Positions 411 through 63,373 of a stretch of DNA of 64,000 nt are shown here, one piece after another. The number at the start of each line of letters is the position of its first letter. Within the stretch, counting starts at the first letter, position 1. The notes under the pieces are model-generated. The model worked only from the letters and a program-made list of their open reading frames with translations. It was not told where the DNA came from and did not search any database. Origin of the DNA: a virus; IMG/VR virus record IMGVR_UViG_3300027749_000065, positions 34,811 through 98,810 of that record; one strand, given 5' to 3'. A program made the translations under genes and the position numbers.

Positions 411-1385
411 ATGACATTTAACGATTTCAAAACATTTTTTTCAAGTAACCTAAAATGGGTATATCGAGATAAATGTGATGCAGTATTTAAAAGACAATTT
501 ACTAAAATTGGTAAATATCATTTTTGTGAGAAAAATAATAAATATGGTATTCTCGATGAAGATGGTAGATGGGGGTTTGAAAATACCATAAATACTAATT
601 CAAGATGTGCATTGGAATTATATAATATTTATCTTGAGTTTGGTAATCAAAAATTAGATTTTTTTGAAAATACAGAATATTCCGTTAATAAATTATGGAA
701 TTTTATTGAAGATAATTTTGAATTACTATTCACATATAATATAGAAACAAAATATTACCATAAGTTTAGACTTATTTGTAATCTTTCTTGGTCAAGAGGT
801 CAAATAACATCAGTCTTTTTTTATTTAATACATAAAAATATATTTCCTGACACAATTAAAACAATACTTGAGTTAGAAAGAGGATTATTTTTAGATTTAA
901 AAGGAATAGATGGGTTATTAAATCAAAAAGATGGAACAGAGTTATCTTTACAAATAAAGAGTGGAACTTTTGAAAAGAAGAAATGTTTTTATATTATTGA
1001 TGGTGCTCAGAATGATTTTAATAGTCCAGCCAATTATTATTGTTACATTTATATTGGTGAAGAGAATAATCAAATTATTGTTTTTGAAAATAAAAAAGAA
1101 GGTATAATGTCAAATAATAGTCAATGTATTATTGACGAAGAAATTGTAAAATATATAGATATGGAAAATAAAGAAAATATATCACAAAAACTAATGGAAA
1201 TACTATTATTTTGTTCAAAAAATGAATTTGTTTTTGAATTAAAAAATAATGAACCAGAAAACGGTTTTAAAATCGAACTTAATCCTGAAAAAGTGGTAAC
1301 AATATCAATTAATGATTTTGAAGATAAAGGATTATATAATTTATTGGAAGAGAACTTTAATAAATTAAAGAATCTCCCCCAATAA
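411..1385 (+). CDS. Hypothetical protein, possible PD-(D/E)xK-fold nuclease
   Basis: 324 aa ORF with D-x-x-GID...QIK motif (DLKGIDGLL...SLQIKSG). Oriented opposite to both neighbours. Confidence 0.45.
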   Translation: MTFNDFKTFFSSNLKWVYRDKCDAVFKRQFTKIGKYHFCEKNNKYGILDEDGRWGFENTINTNSRCALELYNIYLEFGNQKLDFFENTEYSVNKLWNFIEDNFELLFTYNIETKYYHKFRLICNLSWSRGQITSVFFYLIHKNIFPDTIKTILELERGLFLDLKGIDGLLNQKDGTELSLQIKSGTFEKKKCFYIIDGAQNDFNSPANYYCYIYIGEENNQIIVFENKKEGIMSNNSQCIIDEEIVKYIDMENKENISQKLMEILLFCSKNEFVFELKNNEPENGFKIELNPEKVVTISINDFEDKGLYNLLEENFNKLKNLPQ

Positions 1386-4211
1386 TTCTTTTGTAAAGGA
1401 TTCTGAATATTCACCGTCACCCATCACCTGATCTATAATGTTTTTCTTTTTATTCAACATATTATAGATTATTCTTTCTATTGTATTATCAAATATTGGG
1501 TAATAAACCATAACACCCTTTTTTTGACCATATCTGTATGCCCTATCTTCTGCTTGTGAATGTAGTGCCGGCACAAATGCCAAGTCATTCATAATTACAA
1601 CTTCTGCAGCAGTTAAAGTAATACCAACACCACCAGCAACAATATTAGAAATGAATATTTTTATCTTATCTTCATTTTGAAATTTATCAACACTATCCTG
1701 TCTTTTTTCTTTTGACATTCTACCATCTAATATTACTGAATTTTTTTTATACTTTTCATGTAACATATCCAATGTCATGGTAAAATTGGTAAAAACGATT
1801 ATTTTTTTATCTTGTTCTAACGCCTTGTCAATTAATTCACATGTATAGTCTATTTTTTCAAATGAAATTACTTGTCTAATTTTCATCAAACGATTAATTG
1901 TTACACTAATACTTTCATTATCCTTTTTTTCGTTAGATATTCTCATGAAGTTTTCTAATTCTTCCTCATAATAGGTACTTTTTAACTCCAAAAAAACTGG
2001 AGATATAATCTTCTCAGGTAAATCCAATATATCTGTCTTCATTCTTCTTAAAACAAGGTTTTTTGTACGTTCTCTTAGTTCATCTAAGTGACTAGCACCA
2101 CTAGTGTTCCATATTTTTTTACCATTTACAGTAAACTGAAATCCTTTACAATATCTTTTGACATAACTTTGCCAATTAAGGGTTAAAGGTGAATCAACGA
2201 TGCTCAAAAGATTAAAATAATTAATTGGTCTTGATGTCATTGGTGTACCTGTTAATAACCACACTTTTGGAATTTTATCTAAAATGTCATTTAATAGTTT
2301 AGTTCTATTTGCGGTGGTATTTGAAATCATATGTGCTTCATCCACAATAGCCAAATCAAATTTTTCATTTTCAATTAAATTTAATTCAGGATTTTCATTA
2401 TCTATTGCGTGGTAGTTTTTGATTATATCATAATTAATAATATAAAATTTAAATGTTGAACCCCATTTTCCACCTTCAACAATTAAAACACGTTCATCTG
2501 AATAAATCGAAATCTCTCTTTGCCAGTTAATCTTTAAAGATGCCGGACAAACAATCAATATTTTTTTAGCACCACTTTCTAAAGATGCGATCGTAGCAGA
2601 AGTTGTATTATGTGTAACAATCGCATGTTCTGCAACATATAATTTATCTGGAGAATCTACTGAAATACATGTACACTCACTTTCACCATATTTTTCAATA
2701 TTAGTGATATATCTACCCGTTGGATATTTTTTAGGTTCGTTATATAAATCTGATTTTCGTTTTAAACGAAATGGGTTCATACCTGGAGGTAATTTTATAT
2801 TTAATCTATATGATATTTTACATTCAACTCTAATTCCATTTTTTTTATAAAAACTTCTTCTTGACCTTTTTCTACAAATACCACCTAAAGTATGAACAAT
2901 TTCAGCAACATCATCACATAGTTGTTCAGACACAGTAGAAAATTCAGTTCCATTAAAATTACCATTTTTTGATTTCATACAATGTCCATCAGTATCCATC
3001 AATCCTTGTAATATTGATAGTCTATTTTCAATTGTTGTATATTTGTATATATCAGGTATAAATTTATTATGTGATCGAGTATGTTCCAAATGTAGATCGA
3101 ATAATGAATTTCCAACATTTATATAACCATTTCTTTTGTTATCTTGTGGTTTGTTTTCTTTTAATTTAAATAAACTAAATAAAGAATCATAATCATCTTT
3201 ATGAACAGAAAATTTTATATTTTTATTTTTAAATGACCCATCACCCAATCCAAGTCCTAATAAATAAGGATCAATCGGTAAAATATTTTTATTATTAAAT
3301 TCTATCGGTTTAACAATTGGTATTTGCCACTTATTATTTCCATTTGGGGATTTATAATATGTATTAATTTTGTAATCTCTATCTTCATTATAACCACTAC
3401 CTTTTATTAATATTTCCCCACCTTCAAACATTTGTTTAGTTGATAACACTAAAGATTTTTTCAATCTATCATTTTTTCTATTTTTACCATAATTTGGTGA
3501 TGAAACTGACCATAAATGTTCATCCCCACTTAAAATTGTGTATCCATCATTAAAAGTTATTTTATATGTTTCTTTTTTACCTTGAGGAAATACACCAATT
3601 ACATTACACGGTTTACCATTTGAACCAATTACCTTATCGCCAATAACAATTTCACCCATTTTTTTTACACCTAACTCATTGTAAATCAATGTATTATTGT
3701 CTAAAAATTTCCCCAAACCCATATCATCCGCCAATATGAATTTATCGTTTGCTAGTAATTTCTCAATTGCAACTTTTTGATGTTCTAATGGTGGTCTTTT
3801 ATTAAATCTTGAATAATCAATAATTCTATTTAATTTTTTTTCAGGTTGTACGATTGCTGCTTTAGGTAACCAAAATGCGTGGTTAACTTCATGTTCAAGA
3901 TATTTTCCCCATATATGATATGCCTTATCGCTTTCACATAATAATTTTTCACACCAAATATGTTCCAATTTATCTAATAATAAACGTTCATCCATTATTT
4001 TTTCAGCAAAAGAATCAACAATTTTTATGTGTTTTTTTGCCACTTTTGGTTCAACATTATGGTAGTTTAAAACATAATCAGATTGTGGGCGTGACAATTT
4101 AAAGTTCTTAACGGACGTGAACTTGTTCTTCAATTCTAATAGATGGTTATTTGCTCCACTATATTCTAATAATATTTCTCTTGCCCTAATTTCAGGAATT
4201 TTATTATTCAT
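1365..4211 (-). CDS. SNF2/SMARCAL1-like helicase with intein
   Basis: ILADDMGLGK/T motif I split by an intein, IVCPASLKINW, VDEAH, LLTGTP, GGVGITLTAA, QAEDRAYRYGQ. Confidence 0.93.
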   Translation of the reverse strand: MNNKIPEIRAREILLEYSGANNHLLELKNKFTSVKNFKLSRPQSDYVLNYHNVEPKVAKKHIKIVDSFAEKIMDERLLLDKLEHIWCEKLLCESDKAYHIWGKYLEHEVNHAFWLPKAAIVQPEKKLNRIIDYSRFNKRPPLEHQKVAIEKLLANDKFILADDMGLGKFLDNNTLIYNELGVKKMGEIVIGDKVIGSNGKPCNVIGVFPQGKKETYKITFNDGYTILSGDEHLWSVSSPNYGKNRKNDRLKKSLVLSTKQMFEGGEILIKGSGYNEDRDYKINTYYKSPNGNNKWQIPIVKPIEFNNKNILPIDPYLLGLGLGDGSFKNKNIKFSVHKDDYDSLFSLFKLKENKPQDNKRNGYINVGNSLFDLHLEHTRSHNKFIPDIYKYTTIENRLSILQGLMDTDGHCMKSKNGNFNGTEFSTVSEQLCDDVAEIVHTLGGICRKRSRRSFYKKNGIRVECKISYRLNIKLPPGMNPFRLKRKSDLYNEPKKYPTGRYITNIEKYGESECTCISVDSPDKLYVAEHAIVTHNTTSATIASLESGAKKILIVCPASLKINWQREISIYSDERVLIVEGGKWGSTFKFYIINYDIIKNYHAIDNENPELNLIENEKFDLAIVDEAHMISNTTANRTKLLNDILDKIPKVWLLTGTPMTSRPINYFNLLSIVDSPLTLNWQSYVKRYCKGFQFTVNGKKIWNTSGASHLDELRERTKNLVLRRMKTDILDLPEKIISPVFLELKSTYYEEELENFMRISNEKKDNESISVTINRLMKIRQVISFEKIDYTCELIDKALEQDKKIIVFTNFTMTLDMLHEKYKKNSVILDGRMSKEKRQDSVDKFQNEDKIKIFISNIVAGGVGITLTAAEVVIMNDLAFVPALHSQAEDRAYRYGQKKGVMVYYPIFDNTIERIIYNMLNKKKNIIDQVMGDGEYSESFTKELLGEIL
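2607..3707 (-). mobile_element. Class 3 intein with LAGLIDADG endonuclease in SNF2 Walker A (367 aa)
   Basis: Starts with Phe after GLGK and ends IVTHN/T. EHLW (block B Trp), ECTCISV (block F Cys), THN (block G Thr). LLGLGLGDG and LQGLMDTDG motifs. Confidence 0.9.
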
Positions 4212-11678: not shown

Positions 11679-11718
11679 ATTTCCATATATTTATCTAAAA
11701 AGGTAGATATATGGAAAT
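11679..11718 (+). promoter_or_regulatory. Hairpin sequestering the endonuclease start codon, with the TATTTAT motif in its 5' arm
   Basis: ATTTCCATATATTTATCT-aaaa-AGGTAGATATATGGAAAT: 18-bp stem with two G-U pairs. ATG 11711 lies in the 3' arm. Confidence 0.75.
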
Positions 11719-12616
11719 TTTTATTTGTAAGATATGTAAAAAAGAGTTTAATAGTTTATTAGGTGTTTCAAATCATTCTAATAGATTTCATAACATAAGT
11801 CCTAAAATGACATATATTGATTTTGTTTTGAATAATGTAGAACCTAAATGTGAATGTGGTTGTGGTGAAAAAACAAAATTTTTAACTATAAATAAAGGTT
11901 TTAGTAAGTTTATTTCTGGACATAATAGTTCCACATCAAATAATAACTTTCATAAAAACCCTGAAAGTAAAATTAAATCGGCAAAGACACAATCTGAAAA
12001 TTGGAGTAAAGGTATGTATCGTAGATGGTGGGAAGAGGATACTGAAGATACTAAACAAAAAATTGAAGGGATAAAAGAAAAATTAAGAAACGACAAAGTA
12101 AGAGGTAAGAAAATATCTGATAAATTATCAGGTGTACCTAAAACAGAAGAAAGTAAAATTAAAAATTCGTTATCTCAAATCGAAAGATATAAAAATAACC
12201 CCCAATTAAAAATTGATGCATCTAAAAGAAAACTAATTTGGATGAGAAATAATTCAAAAGTTAAAACATCTAAATTAGAAATTATTTTCTCTAAAATTTT
12301 AGATGATCTTGGTTTAATAAAAGATGTTGATTATATACATAATTATTTAATATCTGAAATTAAAACTTTTTTTGATTTTTATTTTATTAATAAAAAAATA
12401 TTAATTGAAGTTGATGGTGATTTTTATCATTGTAATCCAAATAGTAAATTTTCAATTCCAAAATACGAAATACAAAATAAAAACATATCAAATGATAAAA
12501 GGAAAAATACATGGTGTAAAAATCATAATATCATATTAATTCGTTATTGGGAAAAAGATATAAATGAAAACCCTGAATATGTAATAAAAGATTTAAAAGA
12601 AAAATTAGGTATTTGA
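11711..12616 (+). CDS. Free-standing homing endonuclease (Zn finger, CxCGCG, NUMOD3-like, Vsr/DUF559-like)
   Basis: CKIC..H..H, CECGCG, KTEESKIKNS, FFDF...IEVDGDFYH...IRYWE. Confidence 0.8.
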   Translation: MEIFICKICKKEFNSLLGVSNHSNRFHNISPKMTYIDFVLNNVEPKCECGCGEKTKFLTINKGFSKFISGHNSSTSNNNFHKNPESKIKSAKTQSENWSKGMYRRWWEEDTEDTKQKIEGIKEKLRNDKVRGKKISDKLSGVPKTEESKIKNSLSQIERYKNNPQLKIDASKRKLIWMRNNSKVKTSKLEIIFSKILDDLGLIKDVDYIHNYLISEIKTFFDFYFINKKILIEVDGDFYHCNPNSKFSIPKYEIQNKNISNDKRKNTWCKNHNIILIRYWEKDINENPEYVIKDLKEKLGI

Positions 12617-31227: not shown

Positions 31228-33624
31228 ATGGAAGAAAGGAATTTCGGTTATTTGGGGGCAACATTTCAACAATCATTAATCAAAGCGATTATTGAAGATA
31301 AAAAGTATGGTGAAAACATCATTGATGTAATAGAATCTCGTTTCTTCGACAATAACGCTTTCAAGTTCATAATGGAGAACTTGAAAGAGTTATATAAATT
31401 GTATAATAAAATCCCTGACTATAATACGTTGGCACAAAAGATTATGGCAGAAAATGGTAATAAGGAATCTGCTAGAATCCACATTGACACATTAGAAATA
31501 ATTAAATCTAGTGAACCAACAGAATATGTTAAAGATACCGCACTTAATTTTTGTAAACAACAAAATTTAAAGAGGGAACTTAAAAACGTACAAAGTATTA
31601 TTGAGAATGGTGAGTTTGAAAATTATGCGAAAATTGAACAAATAATTCAAAAAGCGTTACAAGTTGGTATCATCAATGACGATGCAACAGATGTGTTTCA
31701 CGATATTGAAGGTGCGTTAGAGAAAGATTTCAGACATCCAATACCAACAGGTATCGTAGGTATTGACAACCTTTTAAAAGGTGGTTTAGGAATAGGTGAA
31801 TTGGGTGTAGTTTTAGCTCCGACTGGTACGGGTAAATCATTACCTATAAGTGAACCAATATTGACTCCAAATGGTTGGATGAAAATTGGGGATATTAAAT
31901 GTGGTGATAAAATCATAGGTTCTGATGGTAATGAACAATTTACAATAGGGGTTTTTCCACAAGGTAATAGACCAATATATAGAGTTGAATTCACTGATAA
32001 TACTTTTGTTAACTGTGATCAAGAACATTTATGGTCAGTTAATACTCTTAATATGAGAACAACAAAAATAAGAAAAAATGGTATATCTTTATATAAACCA
32101 AATAACAATTATAAAGTTATGAAAACATCTGAAATGATGTTGGATATAAAAAAACGAGGTAGATATAATTATCGTTTACCTATTGTTGAACCAATTAACT
32201 TTAATGAAAAAGAAGTATTTATTGATCCATATTTATTAGGTTTACTCTTGGGTGATGGTTGTTTAGGTTGTGGTACAATACAAATTTCAACTAAAGATGA
32301 TGAAATATTCGATAATATTAAACATTTGAATATTCATACATCATTTAATGAATATGAAAGAGAAACATTGACCGGTATAAAAACAATAAAAAAAATTTCA
32401 TTTAATTACAGAATTAAAAAAGATTTAGAAAAATATAATTTATTGGGGACAGAATCTAATAATAAATTTATCCCAAATGATTATTTATATAATTCATTTG
32501 AAGTTAGATTATCAATTTTACAAGGTTTAATGGATACTGATGGTTATGTGGATAAAAAAGGTGGTACACAAATAACGACTATTTCAAAAGAATTATCGTT
32601 AAATATTAGAGAAATAGTTTTATCATTAGGTGGAACATGTAATATAACTTTAAAACAACCAACTTTTAAATATAAAGGTTTTAAAAAGTTAGGTCAAATA
32701 GCATATGTTGTAACAATATCTTTTTCAAATAATATTGTACCATTTAGATTAATAAGAAAAATAGAAAGATTTAGAAAAAGAAAAAAATATATTTCACAAA
32801 AATATATTAAATCAATTAATTTTTCACATAACGAAGAAGCGGTATGTATAAAAGTATCAAATACAGATGAATTATTTGTTACTAGGGATTATGTATTAAC
32901 ACATAATACCACTTTATTAACTAAATTTGCAAATACTGCATATAATTTAGGATATAATGTACTTCAAGTATTTTTTGAAGATAATCCTGGTAACATTAAA
33001 AGAAAACACTATACAATTTGGTCAGGTATTGCACCTGATGAACAAAGTGATAACAAAGATGAAGTTTTGTTTCGTGTTAAAGAAATACAAAGTAATACAA
33101 AAGGTTCAATTAAATTATTGAAATTACAATCTGATGGTGTAACAATTTCTGAAATTAAATCTAAAATCAGAAAGATGTGTTCAGACGGGTTTAAGGTCGA
33201 TTTATTGTTAATTGATTATATTGATTGTATTTCACCTGAAAGATCCGTTAATGGTGATGAATGGAAGGGAGAAGGTTCAATTATGAGACAATTGGAATCT
33301 ATGACAAGTGAATTTGAGATGGCGGTATGGACTGCAACACAAGGTAATCGGTGCGTTTGGATTAAAACAATTGTTGATGTTGAAAGTAAAGGTAAAATAG
33401 AAATTAAAGACATTTCTGTAGGTGATAAAATTTTAACGCACATTGGATTTAAAGAAGTAACATATGTTTCACCAATACAAACACAACCAACATATAAAAT
33501 TAAAACAAAAAGCGGTAAAGAAATTATTGTATCAGATAAACATTTATTTCCTGTTAATTATAATAAATATAAATCAATACGTTCTGGATTATCTGTAGGT
33601 GATAAATTATTAATAAAACAATAA
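31228..33624 (+). CDS. dnaB: Replicative DnaB/gp41 helicase, N-terminal part, with cis intein and split-intein N half
   Basis: IPTG..IDNLLKGGL..GELGVVLAPTGTGK/[intein]/TT, LLLIDYID, WTATQGNR, then CVWIKT... intein N half. Confidence 0.93.
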   Translation: MEERNFGYLGATFQQSLIKAIIEDKKYGENIIDVIESRFFDNNAFKFIMENLKELYKLYNKIPDYNTLAQKIMAENGNKESARIHIDTLEIIKSSEPTEYVKDTALNFCKQQNLKRELKNVQSIIENGEFENYAKIEQIIQKALQVGIINDDATDVFHDIEGALEKDFRHPIPTGIVGIDNLLKGGLGIGELGVVLAPTGTGKSLPISEPILTPNGWMKIGDIKCGDKIIGSDGNEQFTIGVFPQGNRPIYRVEFTDNTFVNCDQEHLWSVNTLNMRTTKIRKNGISLYKPNNNYKVMKTSEMMLDIKKRGRYNYRLPIVEPINFNEKEVFIDPYLLGLLLGDGCLGCGTIQISTKDDEIFDNIKHLNIHTSFNEYERETLTGIKTIKKISFNYRIKKDLEKYNLLGTESNNKFIPNDYLYNSFEVRLSILQGLMDTDGYVDKKGGTQITTISKELSLNIREIVLSLGGTCNITLKQPTFKYKGFKKLGQIAYVVTISFSNNIVPFRLIRKIERFRKRKKYISQKYIKSINFSHNEEAVCIKVSNTDELFVTRDYVLTHNTTLLTKFANTAYNLGYNVLQVFFEDNPGNIKRKHYTIWSGIAPDEQSDNKDEVLFRVKEIQSNTKGSIKLLKLQSDGVTISEIKSKIRKMCSDGFKVDLLLIDYIDCISPERSVNGDEWKGEGSIMRQLESMTSEFEMAVWTATQGNRCVWIKTIVDVESKGKIEIKDISVGDKILTHIGFKEVTYVSPIQTQPTYKIKTKSGKEIIVSDKHLFPVNYNKYKSIRSGLSVGDKLLIKQ
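31837..32907 (+). mobile_element. Intein with LAGLIDADG endonuclease and class 3 WCT signature in DnaB Walker A (357 aa)
   Basis: Starts SLPISEP after GTGK and ends VLTHN/T. EHLW, AVCIKV, LLGLLLGDG and LQGLMDTDG motifs. Confidence 0.92.
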
Positions 33625-33779
33625 AATAAAAAAAAAATATGTTAAAACATGAATTAAATTTAAACGATTTTATTTTAGATGAAATCGTTAGTATCGAGTT
33701 AGAGGGTGAAAATGAAACAATTGATATATCTGTTGATGAAACTGAGTTGTTTTTTGCAAACGACATATATACACATAAT
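33352..33779 (+). mobile_element. Naturally split mini-intein (IntN 33352-33621, 90 aa; IntC 33639-33779, 47 aa)
   Basis: IntN: C1...VGDKILT...SDKHLF...GLSVGD then stop. IntC: M...TIDISV...FFANDIYTHN/S. Confidence 0.9.
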
Positions 33780-34097
33780 TCATCAATTTCATCTGAAGTT
33801 GTTACCGCAGATCAAATGGGTGGTTCTATTAAGAAGGCACAAATTGGTCACGTTATCTTATCTATCGGTAAAACATTAGAACAAAAAGATCACAATTTGG
33901 CAACTTTAACATTACTTAAATCTCGTATTGGTAAAGATGGTGTAGTTTTTCAGAACTGTAAATTCAATAACGAATATTTAGATATAGATACTGAGATGCA
34001 AAACACTCTATTAGGTCATGAAGAAGAGAAGTCAAAAAATAATATTAATAGAGCTAGAGAGGCGTATCAAAGAAGAAATCAAATTGCAAATAATTAA
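33639..34097 (+). CDS. dnaB: Split-intein C half fused to the DnaB C-terminal extein
   Basis: After THN: SSISSEVVTADQMGGSIKKAQ...LLKSRIG, matching DnaB C-terminal motifs including the arginine-finger region. Confidence 0.9.
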   Translation: MLKHELNLNDFILDEIVSIELEGENETIDISVDETELFFANDIYTHNSSISSEVVTADQMGGSIKKAQIGHVILSIGKTLEQKDHNLATLTLLKSRIGKDGVVFQNCKFNNEYLDIDTEMQNTLLGHEEEKSKNNINRAREAYQRRNQIANN

Positions 34098-34111: not shown

Positions 34112-36064
34112 ATGAAAAAAAAGGGAATTTTTAATAAACGAGTCAACATTTTACCATACGATTATCCATCACTTTTATTGTATAAAGACGCTATAAGACA
34201 TTCATATTGGATAGATACAGAGTATAATTTTACCACTGACATAAATGATTATATGGTTAATATAACAGAAAATGAAAAGGATGTGATTAAAAAAACAATG
34301 TTAGCTATTGCACAAATAGAAGTCAATGTTAAAACATTTTGGGCGGATATGTATAAAAGAATGCCAATTACTGAAATTGGTGATGTTGGTATGACATTTG
34401 CCGAATGTCATGTTGAAGGAACTGAAATTTTAACACCTCAAGGTTGGGTTGATTTTAATAAAATTAATATTGGTGATGAAGTGATACAATTCAATCCTGA
34501 TAATACTTTAAATGTAACCATAGTAAATAATAAAACATATGAAAATTATAATGGTATTGTACATAGAATTTATAAGGATAATTTAGATACAATAATAACA
34601 CCAAATCATCGAATTGGATATTATAATCATAAAAACGAATTTTCAATCAAAGCTATTGAGGATTTAGGTGTAAGAAACGCTAACAATAGATTACCAGAAG
34701 CTGGAAAGTTAATTGGTGATGTTGATGAGTTATCAACATTAGATAGGTTAAAAATCGCAATACAGGCTGATGGTAGTAAAAGGTTTTTTACCAATAAGTT
34801 AGGTGAAAGAATTGATAGGGGATTAAGTAAAGATTCTAACACATATGAGATTTCAGTTAAAAAAAATAGAAAGAAAGAAAGACTTTTATATCTATTAAAT
34901 AATACTGACATAAAATATAGAACATATAAAGAAAAAAGAGGTTATTTAAAAGTTGAATTTGAAATGGATATGTCTTTTAATTACAAAACATTTGATTGGG
35001 TTAATTTAAAAGATAAATCATGGAAATGGTGTAAAGAATTTGTTCAGGAATTATCAGAATGGGATGGGTATAAGTTACCATTAAAAAAAGATTGTAAAAT
35101 AAAATATACAACAACAAATAAAAGTTGTGCGGATATTGCTCAAGCAATTGGTACATGTGCAGGATATAAAGTGAATTTCATCACTAGTGTTGATAAAAGA
35201 AGTGATAATTTTAATGATAATTACGTTTTATCTTTTTTAGAAAATAGAGAAAGAGTTGGATTTTCTGCATTAAAAGAGGAAAAATTAAATTATGATGGTA
35301 AAATATATTGTGTTAGCGTTGATTCTGGTATGATAATCACTAGATATAATAATAAAACATTTATAGGAGGTAATTCAGAAGTTAGACATAAAGACGCTTA
35401 TGCTAGATTACTTAGAATTTTAGGATTGGAAGATGAATTTAGAACAGTTGTTGAAATACCAGCAATAAAGGATCGTATAAAATATTTGACAAAATATATA
35501 GATGGTACTAGAAGTGACGATGATAAAATGTATACGAAATCAATTTTACTTTTTTCATTATTTATTGAACACGTATCTTTATTTTCTCAATTCTTAATAA
35601 TGATGAGTTTTAATAAAGAAAAAAACCTTTTTAAAGGAATTTCAAATGTTGTTGAAGCAACTTCAAAAGAAGAAAATATACATGGTAATTTTGGTGCTGA
35701 AGTTATTAATATAATAAAATCGGAATATCCAGAGTGGTTTGATGAAGAATTTACCGAATTAATTACATCTGCATGTAAAAAGGCATATAAAGCAGAATGT
35801 AAAATACTTGATTGGATATTTGAAAAGGGTGAATTGGAATTTTTATCAAAAGAAACCATAAAAAATTTTATAATGAACAGGTTTAATAATTCATTACAAA
35901 AAATTGGAATAGACCCTATTTTTAATGTTGATTTAAAAGAAATTGAAAAAACATTGTGGTTTGATGTTGAAACTACATCAACAAAAGAAGGTGATTTTTT
36001 TTATAAAAAACAAATTGACTATAATAAAAAAAGTAAAAGTATAGGTGAGGACGATTTATTTTAA
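34112..36064 (+). CDS. nrdB: Class Ia ribonucleotide reductase beta subunit with intein
   Basis: E/[intein]/SEVRHKDAY, IEHVSLFSQF, KEENIH, DFF..K..DY. Confidence 0.93.
   Translation: MKKKGIFNKRVNILPYDYPSLLLYKDAIRHSYWIDTEYNFTTDINDYMVNITENEKDVIKKTMLAIAQIEVNVKTFWADMYKRMPITEIGDVGMTFAECHVEGTEILTPQGWVDFNKINIGDEVIQFNPDNTLNVTIVNNKTYENYNGIVHRIYKDNLDTIITPNHRIGYYNHKNEFSIKAIEDLGVRNANNRLPEAGKLIGDVDELSTLDRLKIAIQADGSKRFFTNKLGERIDRGLSKDSNTYEISVKKNRKKERLLYLLNNTDIKYRTYKEKRGYLKVEFEMDMSFNYKTFDWVNLKDKSWKWCKEFVQELSEWDGYKLPLKKDCKIKYTTTNKSCADIAQAIGTCAGYKVNFITSVDKRSDNFNDNYVLSFLENRERVGFSALKEEKLNYDGKIYCVSVDSGMIITRYNNKTFIGGNSEVRHKDAYARLLRILGLEDEFRTVVEIPAIKDRIKYLTKYIDGTRSDDDKMYTKSILLFSLFIEHVSLFSQFLIMMSFNKEKNLFKGISNVVEATSKEENIHGNFGAEVINIIKSEYPEWFDEEFTELITSACKKAYKAECKILDWIFEKGELEFLSKETIKNFIMNRFNNSLQKIGIDPIFNVDLKEIEKTLWFDVETTSTKEGDFFYKKQIDYNKKSKSIGEDDLF
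34406..35374 (+). mobile_element. Intein in NrdB (323 aa, degenerate LAGLIDADG, penultimate Gly)
   Basis: Starts CHVEGTEILTPQGW; TPNH block B; IAIQADG and ELSEWDG; ends IYCVSV...FIGGN/S. Confidence 0.9.
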
Positions 36065-60685: not shown

Positions 60686-61542
60686 TGGATTTAAAAGAAG
60701 TTTCAAAAGAAATAAAAGAATTATTAGAAAAAAGAAGACAAGAAATAGAATTAACCTTTATTGAAGATGAACATATCTATTTCATGAAAGATATTAATGG
60801 TGTTATTAGAAATGATTTTCCTTCCGTATCTAAGGTAATAAAATGTTTCCATGAACATTTTGATACTGAGGGTAAATCACTTGCCATGGCAAAAGGTGAT
60901 TTATATGAACAATCAAGATTATTGGCAGAATGGAAATCGGCTGGAGATTATTCAACGAATATGGGTAGTATGGTTCATTATGAATTAGAAAAAGATACAA
61001 TATCTCGTAATGGTGATTATAAAGAAGTAAGACAACCTATTTTTGAGTGTGATGAGTCACAAATAAGTAAAGGAGATTCAATGATTATCGCTGGTAAGAA
61101 ATTCCTCCATTTAATGGAGGAAAGAGGTGCGGTTTTACTTGATACTGAAATAGTATTGGGTGATCCTGAATTAGAATATACTGGTCAACCCGATAAAATG
61201 TGGTTGATAATGAATAAAGAAAAAAATGGATTCGGGTTTGTTACTACAGATTGGAAAACCAATAAAAAAAAGAATTTTATTGCTCAACCATATACAAAAA
61301 AAATGTACCCACCATTTAACTCATATGACAATACCGCATTAAGTCATTATTATATACAGTTACCATTATATGCGAAACTCCTGTTGAAGATGTTAAAAGG
61401 TACAAAATATGATAACTTAAAATTATTTGGATGTATTGTTGTATTGTTGAAAGATGATGCAACATTCGAAGAATATAGAGTACCTATGGACATAATAAAC
61501 ACAGTATTAACAATGGATGTAAAAAAATATTTAAACAAATGA
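60685..61542 (+). CDS. PD-(D/E)xK exonuclease
   Basis: PSVS, GSMVH, E..L...GQPD...DWKT...QL.LY motifs. Confidence 0.8.
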   Translation: MDLKEVSKEIKELLEKRRQEIELTFIEDEHIYFMKDINGVIRNDFPSVSKVIKCFHEHFDTEGKSLAMAKGDLYEQSRLLAEWKSAGDYSTNMGSMVHYELEKDTISRNGDYKEVRQPIFECDESQISKGDSMIIAGKKFLHLMEERGAVLLDTEIVLGDPELEYTGQPDKMWLIMNKEKNGFGFVTTDWKTNKKKNFIAQPYTKKMYPPFNSYDNTALSHYYIQLPLYAKLLLKMLKGTKYDNLKLFGCIVVLLKDDATFEEYRVPMDIINTVLTMDVKKYLNK

Positions 61543-62204
61543 TAAAAAAAATCGTACACATTAGCGACCTTCATGTTCGCACATTCTTATTACATGAACA
61601 TTATCACAAACAATTAAATGAATTTTTATTTGGTTTAAGACCAAAATTAAAAGGTTTTGAATATGACGAAATAAGGATAGTTTTAACTGGTGATGTGGTA
61701 CACCAAAAGATTAATATTTCCAACGAACAAGTTGTATTAGTTACTTGGTTCTTTAATGAGTTAAGTAAAATTGGTAAACTTATTATCATACCTGGTAATC
61801 ATGATTTCTTGGAAAATAACATGAATAGATTGGATACCATAACTCCAATTGTAGAAACATTAAATAACCCTAATATAACCTATTATAGAGATGGTGGAAT
61901 GTATTCTGACGATAATGTTAATTGGGTGGTTTATTCGTTATTTCAACACAATAATAGACCTGAATTTGAGTTAGAAGAAGGGAAACTACATGTTGGGTTA
62001 TTTCATGGACCAATTCAAGGATTTACTACCGATACTGGTTATATTTTCGATGAAACTGCATATGATAAATTAAACTTTGTCGGGTGTGATATTGTTTTAT
62101 GTGGGGATATACATAAGAGAGATATAAAATATTTAGAAAGAGAAATTGAAATAGATGAAAAAGATATTGATGAATATTTAAAAAAAGGTTGGAAAAGAAT
62201 ATAA
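61539..62204 (+). CDS. SbcD/Mre11/gp47-like metallophosphoesterase, N-terminal fragment
   Basis: HISDLH, TGD, GNHD, FHG, GDIH motifs; ends before the GS motif. Confidence 0.85.
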   Translation: MIKKIVHISDLHVRTFLLHEHYHKQLNEFLFGLRPKLKGFEYDEIRIVLTGDVVHQKINISNEQVVLVTWFFNELSKIGKLIIIPGNHDFLENNMNRLDTITPIVETLNNPNITYYRDGGMYSDDNVNWVVYSLFQHNNRPEFELEEGKLHVGLFHGPIQGFTTDTGYIFDETAYDKLNFVGCDIVLCGDIHKRDIKYLEREIEIDEKDIDEYLKKGWKRI

Positions 62205-62252
62205 CACTAAAATTTTGTTGAATTCGCTATATTTATAATAAACAACAAAAAT

Positions 62253-63167
62253 ATGGAGAAACAATGCATACAATGTAAAAAAAATTATCAACCAAAAAAT
62301 AAAACTCAAAAATTCTGTTCAGTTGAATGTCAATATAATTCATATAAAATTCAAAAAATAGAAAAAATAAAAAAAGAATGTATTAAATGTGGTAAAATTT
62401 ATTATAAAATCCCTAGTAAATCTGGTTCAACATATTGTTCTAGAGAATGTAAAGATTTACATCAAAAAGAAATTTACCTTAAAGAAGGTAATCCTATTTG
62501 GGGTAGAAAATACACAATAATTGAAAAAAAAATTAAATCAGACACAATTAAAGAATTGTGGAAATCTGAAGAATTTAGAGAATCCGTTAAAAACGGACAA
62601 GAAATTTTTTTAAAAAAAAATGGTTATTGGTTTGGTACTGATGATGTAAGTAAAGAAAAAAGAAAAAAAACTTTAATTAATCGGTATGGTATTGAACATA
62701 ATTGGTGCGGAAAATATGGTGAAAGAATTTGTGATAAAACAACCTTTGAAAAATATGGAAAGACATCTGTAGATATGTTAATTGAATATACAAGACATTA
62801 CAATAAAAAAACAGATATTGAAAATATTTTTGAAGAATTTTTAAAAGATTTAAAAATACCATTTCAAGATAAATTTAAAATTTATAATAAAGATAAAATT
62901 GATTTTTGGTATAAAGAGTATGATTTTTTAATTCTAAATACTAATATTTTAATTGAGGTAGATGGTGATTATTGGCATGGTAATGAAAAAATTTTCCAAG
63001 ACTTAACTGATTTTCAAAAATCAGTTAAAATTAATGATAAAATAAAAGAAAATTTCGCGACTTCTAATGGTTATGAAATTATAAGATTTTGGGGTTCAGA
63101 CATTAAAAAAAATAAAACTGAAATAAAAGAAAAATTAAAAGAATTATGGGAAAAATTAAATTATTAA
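62253..63167 (+). CDS. Free-standing Vsr/DUF559-like homing endonuclease interrupting the gp47-like gene
   Basis: CxxC...[FY]CSxEC repeats, YDF...IEVDGDYWH...IRFW. Confidence 0.82.
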   Translation: MEKQCIQCKKNYQPKNKTQKFCSVECQYNSYKIQKIEKIKKECIKCGKIYYKIPSKSGSTYCSRECKDLHQKEIYLKEGNPIWGRKYTIIEKKIKSDTIKELWKSEEFRESVKNGQEIFLKKNGYWFGTDDVSKEKRKKTLINRYGIEHNWCGKYGERICDKTTFEKYGKTSVDMLIEYTRHYNKKTDIENIFEEFLKDLKIPFQDKFKIYNKDKIDFWYKEYDFLILNTNILIEVDGDYWHGNEKIFQDLTDFQKSVKINDKIKENFATSNGYEIIRFWGSDIKKNKTEIKEKLKELWEKLNY

Positions 63168-63373
63168 AAAAAATACCTATTATCCAAATTGGTTCATTCA
63201 TACAGCAGAATTTTGGGGAAACAGTCAACCATCATGGTTATGGATTATATGATGTTGAAAGTAATGAATATACATTTCATGATGTTATAAATGAAAGTCC
63301 TTACTTACATTTTAAAATAAATGACATAAAAGATATAGAAAATGGAGAAGAAATATTACTTAACCTTGGATAA
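63146..63373 (+). CDS. SbcD/gp47-like nuclease, C-terminal fragment
   Basis: IGSFIQQNFGE...HGYGLYD is the GS...FGE..G motif that follows GxxH in this family. Confidence 0.8.
   Translation: MGKIKLLKKIPIIQIGSFIQQNFGETVNHHGYGLYDVESNEYTFHDVINESPYLHFKINDIKDIENGEEILLNLG

Follow-up and report, generated by a model that had tools for sequence, protein, structure and literature searches.

Organization of the divided helicase gene

The gene for a DnaB/gp41-like replicative helicase in IMG/VR virus record IMGVR_UViG_3300027749_000065 (98,810 bases) is divided between two consecutive open reading frames (ORFs), and an intein half lies on each side of the division. We analysed 64,000 nt of this record (positions 34,811 to 98,810), referred to here as the window, and all coordinates are those of the window unless stated otherwise (Table 1). 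ORF1 (31228..33624) encodes 798 amino acids (aa), reads VWTATQGNR|CVWIKT at the break and ends in GDKLLIKQ. ORF2 (33639..34097) encodes 152 aa, starts with MLKHELNLNDF, and reads ANDIYTHN|SSISSE at residues 47/48 before continuing with 105 aa of helicase. The two frames differ (an offset of 17 nt), and an in-frame TAA at 33627-29 lies just 5' of the ORF2 start codon. The initial annotation had described a DnaB gene broken at TQGNR/C, a 90-aa N-terminal intein half (IntN) ending at the TAA at 33622 and, 14 nt further on, a separate ORF in another frame that begins with a 47-aa C-terminal half (IntC) ending in THN/S. All of these features are confirmed by the sequence and the list of ORFs, with the ORF2 ATG at 33639. 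Its charge counts (16 K/R and 9 D/E in IntN; 13 D/E and 1 K in IntC) are exact: IntN contains 15 Lys, 1 Arg, 5 Asp and 4 Glu, and IntC contains 1 Lys, 5 Asp and 8 Glu.

Table 1. Features of the divided helicase gene in the window.
Feature	Coordinates	Strand	Description
Helicase N-extein, part 1	31228..31836	+	203 aa, to Walker A GTGK; PHROG 19 DnaB-like replicative helicase, E 1.6e-40
LAGLIDADG intein in P-loop	31837..32907	+	357 aa, GTGK|S...THN|T; Pfam Hom_end and LAGLIDADG_3
Helicase N-extein, part 2	32908..33351	+	148 aa, ends in H4-type motif TQGNR
IntN	33352..33621	+	90 aa; Cys1, block B S61-D-K-H64; net charge +7; 6QAZ, E 2.9e-12
TAA stop closing the N-precursor	33622..33624	+	seen in the sequence and the ORF list
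Spacer AATAAAAAAAAAAT	33625..33638	+	14 nt, A-rich; leader for IntC without a Shine-Dalgarno sequence
IntC	33639..33779	+	47 aa, ends in NDIYTHN; net charge -12; 6QAZ, E 5.5e-4; Pfam Intein_splicing, profile positions 114-155
C-extein	33780..34097	+	105 aa and stop; first codon TCA (Ser+1, 33780-82)

The helicase segments are closely matched by those of related phages. The first part of the N-extein is 97% identical to those of contigs L001-L004, the window is collinear with L001 up to base 33350 (92.9% DNA identity), and the C-extein is 97% identical in amino acid sequence to those of L001-L003. The LAGLIDADG intein is present as a 96% identical copy in L001-L003 but is absent from L004 and from L017-L080. 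As this intein is contiguous and lies on one precursor, it would have to splice in cis, and the mature essential helicase would thus need one cis- and one trans-splicing event.

The spacer is similar to the leaders of other genes in the window. Among 39 gene starts, the positions from -16 to -1 are up to 77% A and almost free of G, and a Shine-Dalgarno-like 4-mer is seen at just two of the 39. The spacer therefore resembles an ordinary leader and translation start for this phage, and the leaders suggest a host with Shine-Dalgarno-independent initiation. Because only 14 nt separate the ORFs, their co-transcription would be the natural expectation. A short A-rich gap between directly consecutive ORFs would also suit ribosomal bypass or frameshifting over the spacer, giving a single precursor that splices in cis. 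However, stop codons close both frames, such that a hop of at least 9 nt across two stops would be needed, the RNA of the spacer region has no significant fold (z -0.66), and relatives with 1.2-kb inserts, overlaps or other gaps between the halves all retain separate start codons. We regard recoding as extremely improbable.

Splicing residues and known split inteins

The gp41-1 intein (PDB 6QAZ) is the best solved relative of both halves in phmmer searches (E-values in Table 1). The HLFP, GLxxG, IDIxV and LFxANDIxTHN/SS motifs are all found and align to gp41-1; matches to Pfam Hint and Intein_splicing fall under the curated cut-offs, yet cover the expected regions of the profiles. The end of IntN and the beginning of IntC coincide with the split position of gp41-1, with IntC starting before beta-6, and the two halves are predicted to form the HINT fold of a split intein. 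They lie in separate ORFs (TAA at 33622-24, ATG at 33639, in another frame), as is expected of a naturally split intein, and the break between these charge-complementary halves (+7/-12) falls at the endonuclease-insertion loop, again as expected.

The residues associated with splicing are well conserved. The N-terminal nucleophile is a Cys (33352-54) immediately after TQGNR and is invariant in all 35 IntN sequences of the family. The block B residues S61-D-K-H64 (VSDKHLFP) align with CSEEHLFP of gp41-1. Neither S61 nor H64 varies within the family, and the same is true of His46 and Asn47 at the C-terminus of IntC, which are followed by Ser+1 (IYTHN|S, 33774-33782). The Asp of TIDISV in block F is kept. 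Among 35 distinct relatives, the IntN columns with a conservation of at least 93% are all retained by the window; the family-conserved columns are C1, S61, H64, F66 and P67 in IntN, and D14, E15, D29, H46 and N47 in IntC. Across both ORFs there thus appears to be a complete and complementary class-1 residue set, with a helicase that is predicted to be intact over the junction.

This type of organization has been described as 'fractured genes' by Dassa et al. 2009 (PMC2677866), and the family includes several gp41 inteins with which the window can be compared. The gp41-1 intein, from a cyanophage-like gp41 (sequence in PMC7895425), has the junction TRSGY|...|SSSDV, and its structures (6QAZ/6RIZ) share with the window the split position, the four motifs listed above and a charge zipper between IntN and IntC (bioRxiv 10.1101/546465). 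By hand count the identities are about 38% for IntN and 47% for IntC. The window IntC is 10 residues longer than that of gp41-1, its net charges (+7/-12) are much stronger than the approximately -2/-4 of gp41-1 (counted by hand on whole fragments), and the host helicase is just ~22% identical to P-SSM2 gp41. In a MAFFT alignment of the spliced helicases, the window site is at column 379 and the gp41-1 site (P-SSM2 residue 355/356) is at column 382, with no gaps between them. The window insertion is thus three residues upstream of the TRSGY site, and an allele of gp41-1 (the gp41-1 to gp41-7 group) is ruled out. The initial annotation had called the intein gp41-1-like, which holds for the motifs and the match to 6QAZ but not for the insertion site, which matches that of gp41-8.

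The gp41-8 intein, from a 'phage-like gp41' of the GOS metagenome (Dassa et al. 2009), splices efficiently, has been used as a tool by Pinto et al. 2020 (PMC7090010) and leaves the splice scar LNRSAY, with the junction LNR|SAY (PMC7090010 supplement). Its Q-x-N-R|S insertion point is that of the window (GNR|SSI vs LNR|SAY), matched by motif only, and a search of IMG/VR with a degenerate DNA pattern for a gp41-8 peptide gave no match. Both inteins lie in the same type of host protein, have the Cys1, THN and Ser+1 chemistry with a positive IntN and a negative IntC, and are of similar size (IntN about 88-90 aa; IntC 45-47 aa). Hand counting from the optically scanned supplement gives ~42% identity in IntN and ~51% in IntC, a distance similar to that from gp41-1. 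Unlike the window, gp41-8 has its two halves separated by an endonuclease gene. Considering the gp41-8-type insertion site and the identities of ~40-50%, the window intein is best regarded as a diverged gp41-8-site family member that lacks an endonuclease, and not as a gp41-1 allele.

A fractured gene in the sense of Dassa et al. 2009 has a free-standing homing endonuclease gene between the intein halves, whereas the window has only 14 nt there. The same authors assign gp41-7, a gp41 locus without an endonuclease, to step III of their model (PMC2677866). In gp41-7, as in the window, the halves adjoin without a homing endonuclease gene within a phage gp41-type helicase; gp41-7 is, however, a cyanophage allele of the gp41-1 group and retains the upstream hairpin of its lost endonuclease gene, whereas the 14 nt retained in the window have no significant structure. 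The window is thus an endonuclease-less derivative of a fractured gene, in the gp41-7-type state.

The Npu and Ssp DnaE inteins also trans-splice naturally and have electrostatically complementary halves, but they differ from the window in that the host protein is another one, the genes for the two halves lie at distant genomic positions and there is no fractured-gene history. The initial annotation noted that the charge polarity is opposite to that of cyanobacterial DnaE, and this is correct: in gp41-1 and gp41-8 the N half is positive and the C half negative, and in DnaE the N half is negative and the C half positive (PMC2677866). It is not distinctive, having been published in 2009 and being a property of the whole family with nothing special to this locus: among split members the net charge ranges from +4 to +15 in IntN and from -5 to -15 in IntC. 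Layout, polarity and family are already in the literature, and the window adds a new and fairly diverged member whose evolutionary state has been described as well.

Empty sites, fractured relatives and probable endonuclease loss

Comparison with sister phages shows the site without the split intein. In the closest phages (L001-L003; DNA identity of 92.9% across 6 kb) the LAGLIDADG intein is retained, but the split-intein site is uninterrupted and reads TQGNR-D-SISSE; L004 and 64 further contigs (74-87% extein amino acid identity) contain no intein at either helicase site. The residue at the Ser+1 position is Asp or Glu (GAT/GAA/GAG) in all intein-less alleles examined and Ser in all intein-bearing alleles. 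We find no co-conversion tract around the insertion, as differences from L001 are no denser there than in the background apart from three sites, namely the third base of the -1 codon, the +1 codon, and the third base of the +3 codon.

A scan of IMG/VR with ORF2 and with an IntN alignment yielded 150 loci, 72 of which (the window included) have both intein halves, and these present several distinct arrangements. At 47 of the 72 loci an ORF of 372-410 aa with DUF559/MTES_1575 (Vsr-like) similarity lies between the halves, abutting or overlapping the start of IntC in same-site homologues, so that the position of the 14-nt spacer is occupied by an endonuclease cassette of ~1.1-1.5 kb. Remnants of the endonuclease gene are present at four loci. 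Adjacent or overlapping halves, with gaps of -4 to 63 nt, are found at 10 of the 72 (the window, L110, L111, L114, L118, L119/L120 and L128-L130), and fused cis mini-inteins of 129-132 aa at the other 11 (L094-L096, L098, L101-L104, L116, L121 and L127; about 3001-3387 in most). Some fused mini-inteins are nearly identical to endonuclease-fractured alleles of sister phages (e.g. L096 vs L100), and the fused forms are either the empty target of the endonuclease or re-fusions. The L127 mini-intein has a Tyr in place of Cys1.

Intein-bearing relatives at the same site have extein identities of 21-57%, with IntN 53-64% and IntC 51-79% identical to those of the window. Inteins of the same family with an endonuclease (L081-L083, L122, L125, L133, L137, L139-L144) have IntN identities of 53-64%, and the N-exteins of their hosts are just 21-29% identical to the window helicase, which indicates that the element has spread to very distant helicases or other proteins. 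The same break point is found again in more than 60 diverged loci. The stop codon in split relatives is at, or within a few codons of, the position of the window stop, mostly after KK, and two IntN sequences run 7 and 13 codons longer. An N-terminal extension of IntC of ~10 residues (MLKHELNLNDF in the window) is a usual feature of split members that the fused forms lack. Public protein data include at least 464 clusters (at 90% identity) of IntC plus C-extein proteins of ~150 aa, so the split form is widely maintained; P0002 and P0005 are from the helicase clade of the window but have a different intein allele.

On a maximum-likelihood tree of 41 distinct inteins, the adjacent state must have arisen at least three times. 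The window stands beside the endonuclease-bearing L107 group on this tree as a weak sister, with modest support (93/85), and the window and L107 have in common a rare His-to-Glu change in block F. The nearest intein relatives of the window (the L106-L109 group) retain the endonuclease. With an endonuclease at 47 of the 72 loci, remnants at four and empty sites in sister phages, the endonuclease has most likely been lost at the window locus, and the suggestion of such a loss in the initial annotation is supported. In L108, TAAAAT comes directly after the IntN stop and the endonuclease gene has an A-rich end (AAAAAAT), and the spacer resembles a fusion of these two sequences. An allele nearly identical to that of the window and still with an endonuclease was not found, and a scan of Joint Genome Institute metagenome contigs with IntN gave two distant matches. 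There is also no homologue of the intein-associated endonuclease in the 98.8-kb record; similarity to the Vsr-like gene that splits sbcD in the window is limited to 36% identity over 63 aa.

Relatives among catalogued phages are more distant. A tblastn search with ORF2 against 50,697 phage records gave no match, and an IntN search of phage records found distant inteins only, in Shigella phage ESh36 (at a different gp41 site), Lak phages and a Vibrio phage terminase. ESh36 (L154; ON528746.1, 1849-4829) is a cultured T4-like phage whose gp41 is fractured by a related split intein with an IntN 42% identical to that of the window, the site SDIAE|C...TKN|SAG and a 332-aa ORF between the halves; this intein ends in Lys-Asn and not His-Asn.

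The locus and its relatives form a well-sampled natural series in which the endonuclease has been lost repeatedly (the adjacent state arose at least three times) and one intein occurs fused as well as split. The series backs the gene-fracturing model of Dassa et al. A broader reading, which we offer tentatively and think rather less likely than otherwise, is that freshwater phages display at the QGNR|S site the full split-intein life cycle side by side: empty site, cis mini-intein, endonuclease-fractured gene, decaying endonuclease, endonuclease-free split intein and perhaps re-fusion. The window might then be a recent invasion of a lineage in which sister phages, at 93% DNA identity, still have the empty site, the split state might persist stably and maybe spread without its own endonuclease, and the +7/-12 pair with its R-1/S+1 junction might prove fast and not cross-reactive with gp41-1, gp41-8 or DnaE. 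Protein ligation, cyclisation and split-protein logic rely mainly on natural split inteins as tools, and non-cross-reacting pairs are sought. With ~40-50% identity to gp41-1 and gp41-8, an Arg-1/Ser+1 junction and very strong charge complementarity, the window halves would be a reasonable candidate ligation pair.

Proposed trans-splicing and genome setting

We consider it highly probable that the window carries a live, naturally split class-1 intein in a DnaB/gp41-like replicative helicase, from which the endonuclease has been lost and which acts by trans-splicing. The element is one of the 'fractured genes' of Dassa et al. 2009 and occupies the insertion site of gp41-8, QxNR|S. A free-standing Vsr-like homing endonuclease gene that once split the intein has most likely been deleted almost wholly, leaving a stop codon, 14 nt and a new start codon. 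The adjacent genes, most likely co-transcribed, would give two precursors, one consisting of the N-terminal helicase and IntN (together with the cis-splicing LAGLIDADG intein) and the other of IntC and the C-terminal helicase. The basic IntN and the acidic IntC would associate electrostatically and fold into one HINT domain, in which Cys1, the block B His, Asn47 and Ser+1 would perform trans-splicing to yield a 456-aa helicase with the junction TQGNR-S-SISSE. Joining of the two ORF products into one helicase, as the initial annotation proposed, is the most likely outcome and is supported, as far as sequence can show, by the full set of class-1 residues and by the uninterrupted sister genes.

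Several points weigh against this scenario. We infer splicing, association of the halves and co-transcription from sequence, and the deletion end points from low-complexity sequence that is too simple for proof. The record represents ~30% of a genome (CheckV), such that a second, intact helicase gene may be present elsewhere. The stop, spacer and IntC are crossed by contigs of a single sequencing run, and the window has a Glu in place of the block F His, a residue that 28 of 30 IntC sequences of the family possess.

The last of these, together with the long terminal branch (0.62) of the window intein, would fit an intein that is inactive or decaying after loss of its endonuclease, with the helicase pieces held together as a non-covalent 'clasp' of charged halves, or with a gene that is dead. 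However, Cys1, the block B S-x-x-H, His46-Asn47 and Ser+1 are intact, as are all of the IntN columns conserved at 93% or more, and Ser+1 is maintained where intein-less alleles have Asp or Glu. The His-to-Glu change is seen in the endonuclease-bearing L106-L109 group as well and thus appears to be inherited rather than a recent decay. The efficient splicer gp41-8 also appears to lack the block F His, with an Arg at this position in a hand alignment of the printed sequence. An inactive intein is unlikely in light of these features.

The read evidence consists of assembled contigs only, and the part not covered by runs X3, X4 and X5 (33610-33960) is uninformative because the comparison skips the A-rich repeat. 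X1, the probable source run, matches the entire stretch with no differences and so crosses the stop and frame offset described in the initial annotation. Two further DNA studies (X4, X5) and an RNA library (X3) have contigs that are identical over 33000-33609, which includes the extein/IntN junction, and again beyond 33877-33961; they cover the N side, and none of them crosses the stop, spacer or IntC, in part because of the skipped repeat. The presence of window sequence in a metatranscriptome library is a weak hint of expression.

As only X1 crosses 33610-33960, and as the spacer contains a homopolymer of 10 A residues and natural fused versions of 129-132 aa exist, the stop and frame change could be assembly or sequencing errors in a gene that is truly a contiguous cis mini-intein like those among L094-L127. 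Yet the TAA of ORF1 precedes the A run and a separate TAA at 33627-29 closes the frame of ORF2, such that no single insertion or deletion fuses the frames and the break is not a slip in the run. Furthermore, IntC has the split-type N-terminal extension that fused members are without, IntN ends (LLIKQ-stop) where most split relatives end (KK-stop), and an identical ORF2 product is recorded on five contigs. An artefact is accordingly very improbable, and we favour the split gene with trans-splicing as described above.

The phage carrying this locus is large and AT-rich. The G+C content of the window is 26-31%, its genes include those for tail sheath, baseplate, helicase, exonuclease and ribonucleotide reductase, nearly all on the + strand, and the sequencing runs that contain it are freshwater metagenomes. 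Related contigs extend to 300-335 kb, suggesting that this uncultured freshwater virus is probably a jumbo phage, of which the contig represents one part. A search for a host clue or prophage copy found no relatives among 185,579 prokaryote genomes.

Among the other insertions in the window, we note a 323-aa intein (34406-35374; FAE|CHVEG...FIGGN|SEVRH) within the NrdB ORF (34112-36064), which encodes the ribonucleotide reductase small subunit. It ends in Gly-Asn without the usual penultimate His, and L004 is contiguous at this position and lacks the intein. A second helicase gene of the SF2 type (1365-4211, - strand; PHROG 62) has an intein-sized insert with weak IntN-like similarity. An SbcD-like nuclease gene (61539-63373) is interrupted by a 304-aa DUF559/Vsr-like endonuclease gene (62253-63167) but without an intein, which corresponds to the 'SbcD-like' locus that Dassa et al. 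2009 (PMC2677866) described from the fresh water of Lake Gatun. A 301-aa ORF at 11711-12616 has weak DUF559 and C2H2 zinc-finger matches, and is perhaps another free-standing Vsr-like endonuclease.

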